Shown: positions 10,541 through 52,144 of the stretch, piece by piece
How positions within the stretch are numbered: the stretch's first letter is position 1
How the letters are laid out: each line of letters starts with the position of its first letter
Virus record (IMG/VR): IMGVR_UViG_3300047496_000204
Location: 10,764-74,763 of that record
Source of the DNA: a virus
Reading direction: 5' to 3' (one strand)
Length of the DNA: 64,000 nucleotides
Notes under the pieces: generated by a model
The model's input: the letters and a program-made list of their open reading frames with translations, nothing else
Databases searched by the model: none
Told to the model about the DNA's origin: nothing
Program-made: the position numbers and the translations under genes

Positions 10541-12499
10541 GTGATATCGCTTGATCCAATTGCCACGGAAGTTTTTCAAATTTTACGGTCGTATGACTAC
10601 ACCGTAAAAATGTGGGATGAAGACGGTAATTACGTCTATGAACCAGAAAAAGCTAGACGCATGTGGGCTACACCAGAAAACATAATGGTATCTTTAGTCG
10701 ATAAAGGTGAAGATTCCTATATTAGATTATCTTTAGGTAAATCTACTGAAATAGGTTCGGTAATGGGTTTAGATCAAACTCTTCGTACTGCTTCATCTAA
10801 ATATAATTTGTTATATCAACTTCGCCGCAATCCTAAAGCAGACATAGAACCTTCTCATTTTGCCACAAAAGCTTCTATGACAGAAAATAAGAAAGAAAAA
10901 AATATGGATATTTTTGAAGCTATGCACGGAACTTCTAAATCTTCTTACTGGAAATTAGAAGAAGCTCGAATGATTGTGCGTCACTCCGCAAAAATTAATG
11001 AGACTGTCATTGGTAGTCGTGGAAGAAATATTAAAGCGATATATGTAGAAAATTCTCAAGGGGAACGTTTTATGTTTCCTACCCGCCAATTGTCTCCTGC
11101 TCGCGCAATGACGCAGCACGTAAATCATGGTGGAAAGTTCACTGATAAAATTGGTGAATCAATTATTCACATGGCAGAAAACTATGCAAATCTTGGTAAG
11201 GCTTCTGGTTTTATTAATAGAAATTCTTCAAATCTTTCTGAATCTGCCATGGAAATTAGAGAAAAATGCCGTAATCAGATTTCTGAAATGAGAAAGTGTT
11301 TTGAACGTTTGGCTCGTCCAGGTGGATACATTGGTGAATCAAAAAAATTAGAAGATGAAACTGAAACACTCAATGAAGATTCAGAAGGTAATCTTGAACA
11401 ATTGAAGGAACTACTAATTGTTGAAGGATCGGAATTAGATGAAGATGTAATTAGAAGTATTGCGGAAGCTATGGTAAAAAGCAAAACTTTGAATGAACTA
11501 GATACTTCTGCATTAGATCGAAGAACCAACCCAATAAAAGATACAAAATGCCCTGAGTGTTCCGGAAAAGGCGATTTTAATGGTCGGGAATGTCCTGCCT
11601 GTGCTGGTTCTGGCATTGAAAGTATAAAAGTTTGTGGGCGATATGTTTCTATGGATGCATGGAATGACTTTAAAGCTGGTAAATTAGTTCTTAAAGGTAA
11701 AGTTGTTCTTAATAATATTATGCGTTTTGCTAATAAAGATGATGAGTTATCTTTTAAACTTGGTGAAATTGCCGAGCGAGTAAATAATGATAGTATGTGT
11801 AATTTCTTAGGTTATGTTTCGGATGCATTACACAATCGCAATACTCCCGAGCGTCTTAAAAGTTTACGGCATGTAGCGGCCCATGCTTTAAAAATTGCGG
11901 GTCTTTCCATAGACGAAGGAATTTGTTCCAAAAATCCAGCAGTAAAAGAATTTGCTTATTGGCTGTCTGGTTTTTCAGTTGATAAAATACTCATTGAACG
12001 AGATGACGATGAATATTCTTATGATGAGCATTCTCCGCGTAAATCAGAAGAAAATATTAATCGTGCTATAGATGAAGCAATAGGTAGTGTTGATATAATA
12101 GAATTTTTAGATAGATATAAATCAGATTTTGGATGGGATGACGAAACTTTAACGGGCTCAGATTTAGCTTATGAAAAGAAGTATATTATGCATCTTTTAT
12201 CTCATTATCTCTCTAAGAAAGTTGAAGAAGAATCCGGTTTTGAAGATGTCGATATGGATTTATATGCAGAAGAGTTTTGGCCTAAAGTTAAAGATCATTT
12301 ATCAGGTAGAGGATATTCTATTACCGAAGGTGATTTTAGTAGAGAAGATGTATTAATTCCTACTAATCAAGGTGATGATTTAAAACGAGAAGTAGAACCA
12401 TCTACTATGATCGATGTCATTACAGGACGAGAAGTTCCTGTTGATTCTGGAAGCGTTAATAGGGCTCGTGGTCAGGTAGCAGCACCTTGGTATAGATAA
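10541..12499 (+). CDS. Large late hypothetical protein, probably structural
   Basis: GATAAATA at 10505-10512, GTG start, 652 aa, internal CPECSGKG/CPACAGSG; lies upstream of the ssb-recA-uvsY block. Confidence 0.75.
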   Translation: MISLDPIATEVFQILRSYDYTVKMWDEDGNYVYEPEKARRMWATPENIMVSLVDKGEDSYIRLSLGKSTEIGSVMGLDQTLRTASSKYNLLYQLRRNPKADIEPSHFATKASMTENKKEKNMDIFEAMHGTSKSSYWKLEEARMIVRHSAKINETVIGSRGRNIKAIYVENSQGERFMFPTRQLSPARAMTQHVNHGGKFTDKIGESIIHMAENYANLGKASGFINRNSSNLSESAMEIREKCRNQISEMRKCFERLARPGGYIGESKKLEDETETLNEDSEGNLEQLKELLIVEGSELDEDVIRSIAEAMVKSKTLNELDTSALDRRTNPIKDTKCPECSGKGDFNGRECPACAGSGIESIKVCGRYVSMDAWNDFKAGKLVLKGKVVLNNIMRFANKDDELSFKLGEIAERVNNDSMCNFLGYVSDALHNRNTPERLKSLRHVAAHALKIAGLSIDEGICSKNPAVKEFAYWLSGFSVDKILIERDDDEYSYDEHSPRKSEENINRAIDEAIGSVDIIEFLDRYKSDFGWDDETLTGSDLAYEKKYIMHLLSHYLSKKVEEESGFEDVDMDLYAEEFWPKVKDHLSGRGYSITEGDFSREDVLIPTNQGDDLKREVEPSTMIDVITGREVPVDSGSVNRARGQVAAPWYR

Positions 12500-28889: not shown

Positions 28890-29153
28890 ATGTTTAATAT
28901 GAGAGATGTAATTAATAAATTACAAGAAAGTACGAAATTAAACGAACATACTAATATTTACACAGATCAAGCTAAAAGATTGTTAGATCAAGCAAATATT
29001 ATTAGAAAACAATTCGATAAATCTTGTTCGATCCCAGCAGGGTTCACCATTATTCCATTCTGTCATCCACCGCGCTACGAACGCGGGGGTAGGGGGTTCG
29101 ATTCCCTCATGCGGCGAACCAGCTACACGGAGGTTAAAAGTCTCCTGTGTTAA
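28890..29153 (+). pseudogene. Truncated late gene running into the scrambled tRNA locus
   Basis: GATAAATA at 28853-28860, MFNMRDVINKLQES start; reads into tRNA fragments after about 29025. Confidence 0.45.
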
Positions 29154-29220
29154 CTTTCCAAATTGTTCGTCAAGAGATTTAATATGCCCGAACTTGCTCT
29201 ATCCAATGAGCTAATGCGGC
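29026..29220. pseudogene. Scrambled tRNA-Arg(ACG) and tRNA-Lys(TTT) fragments on both strands
   Basis: Arg 5' part on minus (29195-29220), Arg 3' part on plus; Lys split at TTCG|ATC; 48-nt copy of 28291-28338 at 29149-29196. Confidence 0.7.
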
Positions 29221-29229
29221 ATTGTGTTT

Positions 29230-29314
29230 TGGTGCCTCTCTCCGGACTCGAACCGGAACTCCATTACGGAACCACGGTTTAAGCGTGGCGCGTCTACCAT
29301 TTCGCCAGAGAGGC
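29230..29314 (-). tRNA. tRNA-Leu(TAA)
   Basis: CCACG-CTTAAAC-CGTGG, variable arm, CCA. Confidence 0.92.
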
Positions 29315-29328
29315 ATTTAAAAAATGTT

Positions 29329-29405
29329 TGGTGCGCGTAGCGAGACTCGAACTCGCAAAACTTTCCGCACTCAACGGAACGACTTTACCATTTGCCCATA
29401 CGCAC
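29329..29405 (-). tRNA. tRNA-Leu(GAG), short variable loop
   Basis: TTCCG-TTGAGTG-CGGAA, CCA. Confidence 0.88.
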
Positions 29406-29417
29406 ATTTAGATATTT

Positions 29418-29494
29418 TGGTGTGCATACTCGGACTCGAACCGAGAAACTTTCCCTTCTGAGGGGAACGGCTTTACCAATTTGCCCATACGCAC
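29418..29494 (-). tRNA. tRNA-Leu(CAG), short variable loop
   Basis: TTCCC-CTCAGAA-GGGAA, CCA; paralog of the GAG gene. Confidence 0.88.
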
Positions 29495-29503
29495 AAGAAA
29501 AGA

Positions 29504-29588
29504 TGGTGGGTCATCTGGGACTCGAACCCAGGATGGCTTTCGCAACAGAGTAAGAGTCTGCCCCCTTCGCCGCTCGGGACAATGACCC
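29504..29588 (-). tRNA. tRNA with CTT (Lys) anticodon on a Tyr-like class II body
   Basis: GCAGA-CTCTTAC-TCTGT, CCCGAGCGGCGAAGGG D region, variable arm, CCA. Confidence 0.82.
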
Positions 29589-29596
29589 ATCTTTTT

Positions 29597-29684
29597 TGGT
29601 GCCTCTCTCCGGACTCGAACCGGAACGCCATTACAGCACTGAGGTTTGAAGCCAGCGCGTCTACCAATTTTTCACCAGAGAGGC
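29597..29684 (-). tRNA. tRNA-Leu(CAA), C31-C39 mismatch
   Basis: Aligns with the 29230 Leu gene: CTGGC-TTCAAAC-CTCAG. Confidence 0.8.
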
Positions 29685-29695
29685 ATTTAGAATAG

Positions 29696-29770
29696 TGGTG
29701 AACTCACTCGGATTCGAACCGAGAACCAACTCTTTAAAAGAGAGTTGCTCTACCGTTGAGCTATGAGTCC
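29696..29770 (-). tRNA. tRNA-Lys(TTT)
   Basis: ACTCT-CTTTTAA-AGAGT, CCA. Confidence 0.92.
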
Positions 29771-29771
29771 A

Positions 29772-29854
29772 TGGTGCCCTACCCCGGATTTGAACCGGGA
29801 TGCCTTGCGGCGGCAGCTTCTAAGGCTGCTGTGTATGCATTCCACCAGTAGGGC
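29772..29854 (-). tRNA. tRNA-Leu(TAG)
   Basis: GCAGC-CTTAGAA-GCTGC, variable arm, CCA. Confidence 0.92.
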
Positions 29855-29856
29855 AT

Positions 29857-29948
29857 TTGTTATATCAGATGAGACTCGAACTCACAAAACAACTAACGTT
29901 CCAAAGAACACTTCGTTGGTGTTTACCTTTTCACCACTGATATAACAA
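29857..29948 (-). ncRNA. Pseudo-tRNA with a 12-bp terminal stem and elongated anticodon arm
   Basis: TTGTTATATCAG/CTGATATAACAA, D-like and T arms present, no 7-nt anticodon loop. Confidence 0.5.
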
Positions 29949-29951
29949 GGC

Positions 29952-30023
29952 AGGCGCGCCGTAGGAATCGAACCCACATCTTCTCATTTGGAGGGAGACA
30001 ATCTACCATTGATATAGACGCCT
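29952..30023 (-). tRNA. tRNA-Trp(CCA), imperfect acceptor stem
   Basis: TCTCC-CTCCAAA-TGAGA, canonical T arm. Confidence 0.65.
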
Positions 30024-30040
30024 ATAGAGAAAAGTGTGTT

Positions 30041-30116
30041 TGGCAGAACTATCGAGACTCGAACTCGAAACTTAAGATTCGTAATCCTAGATGATAATCC
30101 ATTTCACCATAGCTCT
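30041..30116 (-). tRNA. tRNA-Arg(ACG)
   Basis: TAGGA-TTACGAA-TCTTA, AGAGCTA/TAGTTCT, G-CCA. Confidence 0.8.
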
Positions 30117-30228
30117 ACGAAACACACTTTTCTCAGAACCTTCCCCAAAAACTGCCGGGGAAGGCTTTGATTAAAACAACTTCCCCGCTGGCGACGGAAG
30201 AAGCCTTGATTCACGATGTAAAACAGAC

Positions 30229-30273
30229 AAAGAAAAACCCCGGATAAGCTTTTTTGAAAGCTCTTCCGGGGTT
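30229..30273 (-). terminator. Intrinsic terminator between leader 1 and the minus tRNA array
   Basis: AACCCCGGA...TCCGGGGTT followed by TTTCTTT on the minus strand. Confidence 0.85.
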
Positions 30274-30303
30274 GGTGTAAAATCCAACTATGTTAGGGTA
30301 AGT

Positions 30304-30396
30304 TTACCCCACGGTTGGCACACGACTCCCCGAAAACCCGAGCCACTTAAGGCGCAGGCTTTTCAAGCGGAGAGATATGCTTAACCGAGAGAACAT
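30304..30396 (-). CDS. Leader peptide 1, MFSRLSISLRLKSLRLKWLGFSGSRVPTVG (putative attenuator)
   Basis: AGGA SD 12 nt upstream, directly after the promoter, followed by the terminator; translated by hand. Confidence 0.7.
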   Translation of the reverse strand: MFSRLSISLRLKSLRLKWLGFSGSRVPTVG

Positions 30397-30456
30397 AATT
30401 AGTTTAATTCCTATATCTGTGATGCTAACGCGGGATGCGCTCGCTGTCTTGAAACC

Positions 30457-30487
30457 TATTTATCTCACAACGCTAAACCGGTGTCAA
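30457..30487 (-). promoter_or_regulatory. Promoter of the minus tRNA array, TTGACA-N17-GATAAATA
   Basis: Shares TTGTGAGATAAATAGGTT with the promoter at 35254. Confidence 0.8.
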
Positions 30488-30519
30488 TTAATTTTTCGAG
30501 ATTTTTTCATAAATAAAGA

Positions 30520-31707
30520 ATGCGATATTTTGAATTAACAGAAGGTGAAAATCAATTTCAAGCGTTTCCGCTGGCGGTTCACTTCAATAATTGGACAGAT
30601 TTTGAAAGCAAATTAGTAGAAATTTCGAAGAAAGGTTTATCTTCAGAAGAAGAGATGTGTTCTTTAATGGGTATAGATATAAATTTATACCATTCTGTAA
30701 TAGCATCTTCCATTAATAAATGGAGAGACAGCACTACTACATCGTTATTACATGGAATAGCTCATATCGACAATAATTTTCCAAAACCAGGACAACAAAT
30801 TTTTCCTAATGTGAAATGGCAAACGAGATTCTTGCTAATGGCCACGCAAACTATTCCTGGATTTAGAATGTATGTAAAAGGCATACCCGATCCTCAGAAG
30901 AGAGGGTTTTTTCTAAAAATTAATAATCAAAATGCTTTAACTGGTAATGAGGAAAAGATCAACGAAGTATTAAAAATATTATTTCTGTATAATTTCTTCA
31001 ATAGAAGTAAAAAAGTTAAATTACCTAAAATTATATATAGAGGAGTTAGAGCAAACGATTTGCTTCATAATGAGGATTTGAAAGATATAACAACAGCGAT
31101 TTGGAAATCTGATAAATCTTATTCAATGAAGCATAAAGAAGTTTTAGATATACTAATTCAATATATAGTTGATAACGGTTTGGATAAAATAGCTGATGGA
31201 AAAATATTATCTTTCACTTCTTCGATACCTGTAGCAAAATATTTTACACGTGGAGAAGGATTTATCTTACAAGTTGATCCAAAAAAAGTAAGTATAATTA
31301 CATCTGAAATACATGATGCTGATAGAGTTGGTGGAGAAGATAATTTTACTGGCAAAAAAGAAAGAGAATATATAGTAAGAATTCCTGAAAATTTTGCATG
31401 GTCAAAAGACAACATAATTATCAATGATGAAGAATATTTTATTGCTGAACAAAATCCGTTAGGTGTTTCACTTTTTTCTCATGACAATAAAGAAGCAAGT
31501 TATAATATAGATGGTTTCAAAGTAAAAGCGAAGTTTAATTGGAATTCTTCTGGAACAAACGGTTCTGTGCGTTTTAGAGTGAACGATGATTGGGTCAGTT
31601 ATAGCCGTCAAGAATGTAAAAAAACTTTTGGTTTTGATCCATTACCAACACCAGAAAATCTTAATAAGATTACGGAATTTAGGGTTCACCCCGTTAAAAA
31701 ATGGTAA
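30520..31707 (+). CDS. Putative virion-packaged ADP-ribosyltransferase-fold protein
   Basis: CATAAATA late box, MRYFELTE start, IIYRG...LSFTSS...KEREYIV. Confidence 0.6.
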   Translation: MRYFELTEGENQFQAFPLAVHFNNWTDFESKLVEISKKGLSSEEEMCSLMGIDINLYHSVIASSINKWRDSTTTSLLHGIAHIDNNFPKPGQQIFPNVKWQTRFLLMATQTIPGFRMYVKGIPDPQKRGFFLKINNQNALTGNEEKINEVLKILFLYNFFNRSKKVKLPKIIYRGVRANDLLHNEDLKDITTAIWKSDKSYSMKHKEVLDILIQYIVDNGLDKIADGKILSFTSSIPVAKYFTRGEGFILQVDPKKVSIITSEIHDADRVGGEDNFTGKKEREYIVRIPENFAWSKDNIIINDEEYFIAEQNPLGVSLFSHDNKEASYNIDGFKVKAKFNWNSSGTNGSVRFRVNDDWVSYSRQECKKTFGFDPLPTPENLNKITEFRVHPVKKW

Positions 31708-35253: not shown

Positions 35254-35284
35254 TTGACAGGCTTTCGAGCTTGTGAGATAAATA
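35254..35284 (+). promoter_or_regulatory. Promoter of the plus tRNA array, TTGACA-N17-GATAAATA
   Basis: Same architecture as 30457-30487. Confidence 0.8.
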
Positions 35285-35337
35285 GGTTATCGGCTCATTC
35301 CGAGCCCCAACAGTTTTAAAAAGGACTTCCAACTTCA

Positions 35338-35475
35338 ATGTCTCGTTCCATTTCCATCGCAGCTTCTTTCGGCCAGGGCTTTACCGCCTTCGGCGCGATG
35401 ACCGCCGCCGTGGTCATTGGCGTCACAGGGATGATTGGATTCCAGAATCAACCCCCAAAAAAGGCTTCATCATGA
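35338..35475 (+). CDS. Leader peptide 2, MSRSISIAASFGQGFTAFGAMTAAVVIGVTGMIGFQNQPPKKASS (putative attenuator)
   Basis: AAGGA SD 12 nt upstream; stop codon lies in the antiterminator 5' arm; translated by hand. Confidence 0.72.
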   Translation: MSRSISIAASFGQGFTAFGAMTAAVVIGVTGMIGFQNQPPKKASS

Positions 35476-35535
35476 GTTAAAAACGCCAAACAGCGTCCTC
35501 TGATGAAGCCCCTAAGATTTCTTAGGGGCTTTTTT
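35463..35535 (+). terminator. Overlapping antiterminator (35463-35472 with 35501-35510) and terminator (35506-35535)
   Basis: GGCTTCATCA/TGATGAAGCC; AAGCCCCTAAG-ATTT-CTTAGGGGCTT followed by a U tract. Confidence 0.85.
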
Positions 35536-35570: not shown

Positions 35571-35660
35571 CAGGATGTAGCTCAGTCTGGCCGGAGCAGC
35601 GGTTTTGGAAACCGAAGGCGTGAAACGATTTCGTAGGTTCAAATCCTACCATCCTGACCA
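35571..35660 (+). tRNA. tRNA-Pro(TGG) with an enlarged variable region
   Basis: C1-G72, A73, CGGT-TTTGGAA-ACCG, CCA. Confidence 0.8.
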
Positions 35661-48099: not shown

Positions 48100-48191
48100 A
48101 AAAACAACTAAAAGATTCTAACGAAATAGTGGGTTGACAGCCTAAATATTTGTGATATCTTATGCTTATAAAGCATAAGGAGATAATAAAC

Positions 48192-49726: not shown

Positions 49727-49944
49727 TGGACCCGACTATTAGAAATAGAAAATTCGAAGCTATTCGCGTTGAAGAAAACGCCGGTAATATTGCGGATAGT
49801 ATGGAAGTTCGTATGACTTTAATAGCCAAGATGGATGCCGGTGAAATGACACTGGAACAAGTTCAAGCAGAACTTAAAAGAATAAAAAGAAATGCTAAAA
49901 AGAATGGAAAGATAACTCGAAATCAAGCATTTCGTGAAGGATAG
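49726..49944 (+). CDS. Hypothetical protein
   Basis: Translationally coupled to the previous ORF. Confidence 0.65.
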   Translation: MDPTIRNRKFEAIRVEENAGNIADSMEVRMTLIAKMDAGEMTLEQVQAELKRIKRNAKKNGKITRNQAFREG

Positions 49945-51161: not shown

Positions 51162-52144
51162 AAAATTTACAAACACTTAGTAATGAAGTTCGGGAATGGT
51201 TCGCTGAACGCGAAATCACTCACGCTGTAGTTGGGTTTTCCGGTGGTATTGATTCCACCGTGACCGCTCTTCTTCTCAATCATGCTGGAATTGAAGTTTG
51301 TCTTGTTGTGGCCAATTCACCGAATCAACGATATTCATCGCCGCTTGGTGGAAAATATCTTCAGAAACCTTCGCGTAATGGTTTTATAGAAGAATTTGAT
51401 ACCCAAATCATCAATTATCAGTGGCCTTTTTCGCTACTCACTGATGATGATGCCGTTGTCGCTAACGAAGCGGCTGGTCCGATCATCCGCAATGCTATTT
51501 TTTATGGTGTTGCAGCCAAGTTGAGATCGCGCGGACACAAGGCTATTGTAGTCGGAACTGTTAATTTTTCCGAAGCAGCATTTCTGGGGTTCTGGGGTTT
51601 AGTTTCAGATGGAGCGTGCAATTTCTACCCGATTAGTCATTTGACCAAGCGAGAAGTCTATGATCTGGCTCGCGAGTTGGACGCTCCGCAAGAGATCATC
51701 GATGCTACACCGTCTGGTGATCTTTTCTTTGAAGATACAAATGATTTGAAGATGATCGGCGCGACTTATGACCAGATTCAAGAAATCATTGATTGCGCTG
51801 AATCGATTCCAAATTGGGATTGTAATGGAACATATTCTCGTGGAGACTTGGTAATATATGAAAATAAAATTTATGAATATACTTGGCGGACACAACTGAC
51901 TTTTGGAAATGACAATCTTGCTATGAATCCAAGTTGTTCAGGATTTTGGAAAACCATTGAAATTTCTTCGAGACTTAAGCATCTCATAGAGAGTGTAGAA
52001 AATCCAGAAGTTCTCAAAGACAATATTGTTCGCAACGCCTTCAAGTATTCCTTGAGTTTCCCAAATTTTCACCTAAATGATCGTCTGGAACGTTTTAGAA
52101 ACTTTTCGTATAATTTTATATTAAGTGCTGCATCGGGGATTTAA
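51158..52144 (+). CDS. nadE: NH3-dependent NAD+ synthetase-like protein with a CBM5/12-like insertion
   Basis: GFSGGIDST, VGTVNFSE, SDGA, PISHLTKREV and PSGDL. Confidence 0.85.
   Translation: MKNLQTLSNEVREWFAEREITHAVVGFSGGIDSTVTALLLNHAGIEVCLVVANSPNQRYSSPLGGKYLQKPSRNGFIEEFDTQIINYQWPFSLLTDDDAVVANEAAGPIIRNAIFYGVAAKLRSRGHKAIVVGTVNFSEAAFLGFWGLVSDGACNFYPISHLTKREVYDLARELDAPQEIIDATPSGDLFFEDTNDLKMIGATYDQIQEIIDCAESIPNWDCNGTYSRGDLVIYENKIYEYTWRTQLTFGNDNLAMNPSCSGFWKTIEISSRLKHLIESVENPEVLKDNIVRNAFKYSLSFPNFHLNDRLERFRNFSYNFILSAASGI

Follow-up and report, generated by a model that had tools for sequence, protein, structure and literature searches.

A putative leader-peptide attenuator in front of a tRNA gene array of a very large phage

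Here we describe a minus-strand cassette (30487-30229), a candidate leader-peptide attenuator, that lies in front of a transfer RNA (tRNA) gene array in 64,000 nucleotides (nt) of viral DNA, positions 10,764 to 74,763 of the IMG/VR virus record IMGVR_UViG_3300047496_000204 (this whole stretch is called the window, and positions without a contig name refer to it). The window is part of a 134.5-kb virus contig from a moss metagenome assembly with a G+C content of 37%; its CheckV completeness of 26% points to a very large phage. ARAGORN and Rfam identified 33 tRNA genes on the contig, all of them inside the window and arranged in two diverging groups. The minus-strand group runs from 30116 downwards with genes for Arg, Trp, a His-like tRNA, five Leu and two Lys tRNAs, followed farther down by Ile-TAT, Leu, Arg-TCG and Lys. 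On the plus strand, a second group begins at 35571 and extends upwards; it encodes tRNAs for Pro, Gly, Cys, Ile-GAT, Met, Val, Asn, Phe, Gln, Thr and Ala. The minus-strand cassette occupies a 400-nt gap between a plus-strand gene for a 395-amino-acid protein (30520-31707) and the head of the minus array.

A first-pass annotation, made from the sequence of the window, had described a promoter, a Shine-Dalgarno sequence, a 30-codon open reading frame (ORF), a terminator and then tRNA genes, and all of these could be located on the minus strand where it had placed them (Table 1). The -10 element is missed by a consensus promoter scan because of its final base, an A. The 18-nt block that holds it is present in only two copies in the entire contig, one ahead of each tRNA array, and its core, TGAGATAAATA, is retained in L068, a contig from a lake metagenome that carries orthologous cassettes. 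The 5´ untranslated region of the leader is about 55 nt long. The 12-nt distance between AGGA and the start codon is also found in the sister cassette ahead of the plus-strand array and in one of the two L068 cassettes (E2-like); the other one (E1-like) has kept AGGAATT, with a gap to the ATG of about 13 nt by count. In the minus cassette 32 nt separate the stop codon from the terminator, and the first downstream gene, tRNA-Arg(ACG), starts at 30116, 120 nt beyond the terminator. No sigma-70-like promoter was detected on the minus strand between the terminator and the first tRNA gene with the consensus scan; the TTTACA/TTGACA of the post-terminator block was considered as an internal promoter and rejected, since it has no usable -10 element. 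This 32-nt block is nearly identical in L068, where both hairpins of the spacer are kept with different sequences, whereas the megaphage cassettes examined have no such spacer. The block and the hairpins are candidates for a processing site, a second checkpoint or a protein-binding site.

Table 1. Features of the minus-strand cassette and of the array behind it
Feature	Position	Strand	Remarks
-35 hexamer TTGACA	30482-30487	-	kept in the sister cassette and in the orthologue L068
TG-extended -10 element GATAAA	30464-30459	-	17 nt after TTGACA
18-nt block shared with the sister cassette	30453-30470	-	includes the -10 element and probably the start of transcription
5´ hairpin of the leader transcript	30424-30444	-	predicted by folding; hairpins of other sequence at the same place in the sister cassette and L068
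Shine-Dalgarno-like AGGA	30409-30412	-	12 nt ahead of the ATG
Leader ORF	30304-30396	-	30 codons and TAA; ATG at 30396, TAA at 30306-30304
Putative sensing stretch, codons 4-19	30340-30387	-	six Leu, three Arg, two Lys, one Trp, one Ile-ATA, three Ser
Region 1, codons 4-15	30387-30351	-	5´ arm of the ORF hairpin
Region 2, codons 18-24	30327-30345	-	predicted partner of region 1 or of the terminator 5´ arm (antiterminator)
Small hairpin with the stop codon in its loop	30296-30310	-	predicted by folding; kept in L068
Intrinsic terminator stem-loop, regions 3 and 4	30237-30272	-	bulged 16-pair hairpin, -23.1 kcal/mol; T-run to 30229
Terminator-to-tRNA spacer	30117-30236	-	32-nt block (30237-30206); hairpins at about 30207-30161 and 30168-30132
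Putatively controlled array	29230-30116	-	ten tRNA genes, tightly packed (ARAGORN and Rfam)
Order of the genes in this array		-	Arg(ACG), Trp(CCA), His-like, Leu(TAG), Lys(TTT), Leu(CAA), Lys(CTT), Leu(CAG), Leu(GAG), Leu(TAA)

The codons of the leader ORF mirror the tRNA genes behind it. The first-pass annotation had counted 13 Leu, Arg, Lys (AAA and AAG), Trp or ATA codons among the 16 codons at positions 4-19, and this count is correct; the other three are Ser codons. A recount also agrees that Ala, Gln, Asn, an internal Met and ATT/ATC are absent from the leader. The six Leu codons of the stretch are spread over five different codons, and all 14 Leu, Arg, Lys, Trp and ATA codons of the ORF can be read by tRNAs encoded on the minus strand. 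The match between leader and downstream array that had been claimed holds for these amino acids but not for the His-like member of the array, which has no codon in the leader. If the amino acids are sorted by the array, minus or plus, that carries their tRNA, codons 3-19 form a run of 17 codons without any plus-array amino acid. Such a run is found in 0.06% of the 30-codon windows in the long ORFs of the phage (p about 6e-4), and none of 5000 dinucleotide shuffles produced one. Among the 665 small ATG ORFs on the contig, no other has a run of this kind as long.

The leader RNA is predicted to fold into a structure much more stable than those of shuffled sequences (z = -6.9). In this fold codons 4-15 pair with codons 18-28 to form a hairpin within the ORF (1:2, 30387-30312, -36.2 kcal/mol). 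A second pairing, of codons 21-23 with the terminator 5´ arm, had been pointed out before; it exists and is longer than first noted, since region 2 (codons 18-24, 30345-30327) is complementary to the entire 5´ arm, with 13 bp and a 4-nt bulge (2:3, -18.9 kcal/mol). The terminator hairpin (3:4) has a folding energy of -23.1 kcal/mol. Because the equilibrium fold of the complete terminator does not discriminate between ribosome positions, it was replaced by folds of a shortened transcript, which ended before the 3´ arm of the terminator and in which 30 nt were covered by a ribosome. In these masked-ribosome folds, the 2:3 helix was the minimum-energy structure only with the ribosome at codons 5-14; with the ribosome absent or at codon 16 or beyond, region 2 was held by region 1 or was itself covered. 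The thrL leader of E. coli served as a control for the same script, and its antiterminator, with a partner at codons 19-22, formed with the ribosome at codons 3-12. The proposal that a stalled ribosome would leave an antiterminator free is in line with these predictions: the 1:2, 2:3 and 3:4 topology is present, and formation of the antiterminator depends on the position of the ribosome as in thrL.

The sister cassette (35254-35535, plus strand) starts with TTGACA, the identical 18-nt block across the -10 element, a 5´ hairpin, AGGA followed by 12 nt and a similar beginning of the peptide, and continues with a 45-codon ORF, a terminator, tRNA-Pro and the plus-strand array. Its leader contains no Leu, Trp, His or ATA codon and has a run of 37 codons without a minus-array amino acid, which was seen in none of 8657 proteome windows and in a fraction of 4e-4 of the shuffles. 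Scored against their own and the other array, the two leaders reach 0.48 vs 0.34 and 0.80 vs 0.16. The two leaders partition the amino acids as the two arrays partition the tRNAs; both leaders are also rich in Ser. In the sister peptide, Lys-Lys follows about 21 residues of hydrophobic character, so that it looks like a small membrane peptide. The predicted switch of the sister cassette is simpler and consists of two hairpins: the last codons fold into one that shares sequence with the base of the terminator and would be melted when a ribosome occupies codons 40-46.

A metagenome scan with the promoter pattern, in which most hits were a marine phage promoter ahead of a protein gene, also identified L068 (39.5% G+C), which contains both cassettes in the same divergent arrangement. 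The E1-like ORF (L068:6669-6755:+, 28 codons) is orthologous to the minus leader. The two units share the promoter core, the 5´ hairpin, AGGAATT, the ATG, the Ile-ATA/Ser pair, Trp-Leu, the stop-codon hairpin, the position of the terminator and tRNA-Arg(ACG) as first gene. The peptide of the E1-like ORF contains 15 Leu, Lys, Arg, Trp or ATA codons, with sequence and order changed. The terminator arm of L068 is ACCCUCU and pairs with GGGAGGGU as region 2, and in the phage described here the arm CCCCGGAA stands with UUUUCGGGG as region 2. Masked-ribosome folds predict that the E1-like antiterminator forms with the ribosome at codons 3-12. The E2-like unit (L068:4097-4228:-) is the orthologue of the sister cassette. 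Of its residues, 41 of 43 belong to the plus array, and it is followed by tRNAs for Ile, Val, Gln, Phe, Met, Pro, Asn, Cys and Met; the overlapping hairpin is retained with new letters. Conservation in relatives, which had been named as a check, is therefore found at the level of composition and pairing logic, whereas peptide and stems differ. A codon sensor predicts that composition is kept while the sequence is turned over and that region 2 and the terminator co-vary; a folded peptide or a plain RNA gene does not.

More distant cassettes were reached by alignment of the 395-amino-acid neighbour protein, which led to megaphage records of 374-676 kb, whose tRNA clusters were fetched. Three of these megaphages (G001, G003 and G004; loci L017-L028) contain 13 further cassettes with a small ORF, a strong terminator and tRNAs, and a fourth one (G002) has at least one more (L029:810-932); some megaphage tRNAs, mostly the later ones in a cluster, have no cassette of their own. 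The leader ORFs were chosen by position (stop codon 17-32 nt from the terminator) and not by content, and across 15 cassettes, including the minus cassette of the window, the gap between stop codon and terminator is 17-32 nt. Tyr, Asn and Gln abound in the leader L024:960-1046, which precedes an array of Asn, Asn, Tyr, Tyr, Gln, Gln and Gln tRNAs. L027:476-556 consists nearly entirely of Ser and Leu and is followed by Ser and Leu tRNAs. Similarly, L018:2843-2977 contains Thr, Ala, Pro, Gln, Gly and Arg and the same tRNAs follow, and L026:1177-1269 includes AADCAEED ahead of Asp, Ala, Cys, Glu and Glu tRNAs. When every leader was scored against every array of its genome, the true pairing ranked first among 5040 permutations for G004 and first among 6 for both G001 and G003. 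In 14 of the 15 cassettes, again with the minus cassette of the window among them, the terminator 5´ arm finds its best partner within the last third of the ORF.

The copy of the terminator 3´ arm inside the ORF is read in frame as Ser-Gly (UCN GGN) in L024, L025, L027 and L028, all from G004, and at 30336-30328 of the window. This shared frame hints at a common origin of the cassettes of these distant phages or at a constraint on the frame.

The cultured Caulobacter phage phiCbK has a mini-ORF and a terminator annotated by the authors of the genome ahead of three tRNA blocks, with the terminators at 48120-48166, 49745-49769 and 51465-51502 of the record; one of the mini-ORFs is annotated as the hypothetical protein gp083. 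The leader L031:4342-4440 is rich in the residues of its array (Phe, Val, Ile, Ile, Val, Gln, Gln). The leader ahead of Pro, Lys, Leu and Ser tRNAs matches them partially, and in the one ahead of Glu and Asp tRNAs only 3 of 20 codons are cognate. Of the three phiCbK leaders, the Phe/Val/Ile/Gln one alone clearly mirrors its tRNAs.

On the grounds of sequence and predicted folding, we consider it likely that the minus cassette attenuates transcription through a leader peptide and in this way gates the tRNA operon of the phage. An attenuator logic of the trp/his type had already been proposed in the first-pass annotation and is supported by the computations, since the pairings, the bias of the sister leader, the orthologue and the megaphage cassettes agree with it and phiCbK does so in part. 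The tRNAs are probably made only when ribosomes decode the leader codons slowly. We infer that the ORF is translated, that its translation is kinetically coupled to transcription and that the cassette responds to tRNA shortage, for which anticodon nucleases or starvation are the proposed natural trigger. A host-type RNA polymerase would start at the TTGACA/extended -10 promoter and transcribe a leader of about 220 nt, while a ribosome translates the 30-codon ORF as the polymerase advances. With fast decoding of codons 4-19, the ribosome would reach region 2 or the stop codon and block the 2:3 pairing, so that the terminator hairpin forms and transcription stops at 30237-30229. With a cognate charged tRNA in short supply, the ribosome would stall at about codons 5-14, thereby covering region 1 and leaving region 2 free to capture the emerging 5´ arm of the terminator, and the polymerase would read through into the ten tRNA genes. 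In the absence of a ribosome, region 1 would pair with region 2 and the terminator would still form. Since the products are the tRNAs sampled by the leader, the circuit would switch off once the supply is restored.

It is also fairly probable that a self-tuning tRNA supply through translated leaders matched to their arrays is a general design of tRNA-rich phages. According to such a design, a phage would gauge the decoding speed for each codon class, switch on the arrays that are needed and switch them off once the pools are filled; candidate triggers are a codon mismatch with the host, starvation and defence by anticodon nucleases. The design recurs in lineages with unrelated promoters, namely in the moss phage with its lake relative and in Bacteroidota-type megaphages, and phiCbK has the same layout.

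Several observations weigh against an attenuator. The 12-nt spacing of the Shine-Dalgarno sequence exceeds the 6-9 nt that are usual for genes of this phage, and the start codon of the leader ORF is paired in the full-length fold. When all codons of the ORF are counted, those of the minus array are in modest excess (p 0.03 with windows of long ORFs as reference, 0.05 with the 665 small ORFs and 0.02-0.05 with dinucleotide shuffles), and the run statistic was picked after inspection of the data, so that it needs independent support. Six Ser codons of the leader have no corresponding tRNA-Ser on the contig, although the contig covers only 26% of the genome by the completeness estimate, and the His-like gene of the array is not sampled by the leader. 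Likewise, one leader of G003 keeps four Asn codons, and the stretches fetched from this genome contain no tRNA-Asn. In L068, the minus array is visible only up to the first tRNA, and the match between leader and array cannot be checked there. The main terminator is followed by another terminator-like hairpin, which is weak, and by a conserved block; both could add a control independent of the ORF. The 2:3 complementarity taken alone is marginal compared with shuffles (p 0.05). Moreover, equilibrium folds with the complete terminator give the terminator at every ribosome position, and the model thus depends on co-transcriptional kinetics. In classical attenuators, the terminator likewise wins at equilibrium, judging by textbook stem energies.

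An alternative that we regard as unlikely is an independent small gene, encoding either a cationic peptide of 30 amino acids or a structured small RNA (sRNA), with the tRNAs being expressed constitutively through leak or from a phage-specific promoter. Genes for sRNAs or small proteins usually consist of a promoter, a short stable transcript and a terminator, which the stable fold (z = -6.9) would fit, and the resemblance of the sister ORF to a small membrane peptide as well as the conserved block behind the terminator could be accommodated too. However, the exact partition of amino acids between two ORFs along two arrays would then be left unexplained, as would a hydrophobic sister peptide of 45 amino acids without any Leu. 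The same is true for the orthologue, in which the composition is kept and the sequence changed, for the 13 cassettes of other phages that mirror their own arrays, and for a region 2 that co-varies with the terminator arm.

Very improbable, in our view, is a factor-dependent, processive antitermination (with lambda Q, N/nut or a put-like RNA as models) that is loaded at the promoter-proximal block and for which the ORF is incidental. The ORF with its conserved start, its frame and its array-matched composition has no role in such a mechanism, and the copies of the terminator 3´ arm within the ORF in 14 of 15 cassettes remain without explanation, even though the layout is the same, with about 200 nt of terminated transcript between the promoter and a long operon, and tandem terminator-like hairpins would be better overcome by a processive mechanism. 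That the 18-nt block over the -10 element and start site is identical in both cassettes would also fit, but the promoter block is not specific for the switch, as almost the same promoter is found ahead of a protein gene in a marine phage group and the promoter also precedes a gene resembling transfer-messenger RNA (tmRNA). Finally, a chance ORF in a structured, processed 5´ leader of the tRNA operon, with hairpins for processing or stability, is even less probable: the region has 54% G+C compared with 37% in the genome and consequently fewer stop codons, tRNA precursors carry processed leaders and the two post-terminator hairpins are structurally conserved, but paralogue and orthologue both retain the ORF with its start and roughly the same length despite sequence turnover, the composition signal survives composition-matched shuffles, the pairing of leaders and arrays is the best among permutations in the megaphages, and processing does not require a strong terminator with a T-run.

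The promoter motif was also followed beyond the cassettes. On the contig analysed here it has two sites only, both in the tRNA cassettes, and in the 216-kb genome of phiCbK the pattern TTGACA-N11-TTGTGAGA occurs at exactly two sites (JX100813, 48043-48067 and 49417-49441), again both in tRNA cassettes. The two phages are unrelated in G+C content, and the common motif could reflect a similar type of host promoter or a cassette moving between phages. That the motif is specific for tRNA cassettes was rejected, since more than 70 marine contigs have it ahead of a protein gene. In addition, a related IMG/VR contig (L152, 35% G+C) contains TTGACA, 11 nt and TTGTGAGATAAATAGG ahead of a tmRNA-like gene with the tag peptide ANDNSPMVEEYRLAA (about 10943-11270 of the reverse complement). 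The phage group of this contig may use the promoter for stable RNA genes.

Other searches for relatives gave little. A BLAST search with the locus against GenBank phages yielded no match, IMG/VR scans with four single neighbouring or conserved proteins revealed no close relative, and exact IMG/VR scans with the 18-mer and the post-terminator block had no match. Homologues of the 395-amino-acid protein and of the AAA ATPase of the array led to seven fetched loci, none of which contained tRNAs. A search of sequencing runs for the locus returned only the source moss metagenome and one near-identical fragment of 182 nt; no RNA libraries matched.

One gene of the array is unusual. The tRNA-like gene at 29859-29944 (minus strand) is called by ARAGORN either His(GTG) with 86 nt or Gln with a 6-nt insert, and it stays under the threshold of the Rfam tRNA model. 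In the Logan contigs of the source sample, 367 nt are omitted (window 29226-29594); the gap lies between two genes for Leu tRNAs with 33 nt in common. Most likely, this reflects an assembly collapse on the repeated tRNA sequence; a real deletion is less likely. The 395-amino-acid neighbour on the other side of the cassette (30520-31707, plus strand) has no Pfam domain above the curated cut-off and a weak similarity to Peptidase_S48 (19.4 bits vs 27). Its family is present in megaphage records of 374-676 kb with a varying gene neighbourhood, and the invariant YRG and ExE motifs of the family are compatible with an ADP-ribosyltransferase, an idea of the first-pass annotation.

The reason why phages carry tRNA genes has been debated for decades. 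If the attenuator proposed here is real, expression of phage tRNAs would be conditional and self-limiting, and the cassettes would be a natural read-out of the host tRNAs that are limiting or under attack. Textbook leader-peptide attenuation, known for amino-acid and synthetase genes, would be extended to tRNA genes, and compact codon-specific translation sensors would become available for synthetic biology. As phiCbK is cultured, has the same layout and has one leader that matches its block, the idea is directly testable. It has been shown that phage tRNAs can substitute host tRNAs cut by defence nucleases (PMC10264068, PMC11555353).

Attenuation of phage tRNA arrays had been suspected to be new, and it appears to be undescribed: full-text literature searches turned up no account of tRNA genes being controlled by a leader peptide. 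The phiCbK genome paper contains neither 'leader' nor 'attenuat', and the Rfam search there found tRNAs only.

Among the related cassettes, those of G001, G003, G004, L068 and phiCbK resemble the minus cassette in having a cassette-specific promoter, an ORF of 20-45 codons that mirrors the array and a partner of the terminator arm inside the ORF. Unlike in most of them, where 15-35 nt separate the terminator from the first tRNA, this distance is 120 nt here, and the promoter types vary by lineage. T-box riboswitches likewise translate the status of tRNAs into a choice between terminator and antiterminator ahead of translation-related genes, but they do so without an ORF, by direct binding of uncharged tRNA to a specifier loop and the T-box sequence; an Rfam search of 29000-31000 with E values up to 1 returned the tRNAs and chance matches only, and no T-box. 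The lambda pR'-tR' region with Q is similar in its constitutive promoter, its short terminated transcript and the long operon behind the terminator. In contrast to the cassette, however, the Q system needs a phage protein and a loading site, has no translated sensor and predicts no codon matching.

The closest likeness is to the enterobacterial attenuators. Multivalent examples are known, such as thrL for Thr and Ile and ilvL for Ile, Val and Leu, in addition to trpL, hisL, leuL and pheL. Like thrL, trpL and hisL, the cassette has a promoter-proximal mini-ORF enriched in regulatory codons, and like the thrL type it has a 1:2 hairpin, a 2:3 antiterminator with its 5´ strand at the end of the ORF and a 3:4 terminator. 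Unlike these, it would control tRNA genes instead of genes for biosynthesis or aminoacyl-tRNA synthetases, and its leader would simultaneously sample about ten anticodons, for about five amino acids. In addition, it is phage-encoded, it has a 120-nt spacer with extra hairpins, and its product would feed back directly on the sensor. The attenuation logic is known, and the tRNA genes as its target and the direct feedback are new.

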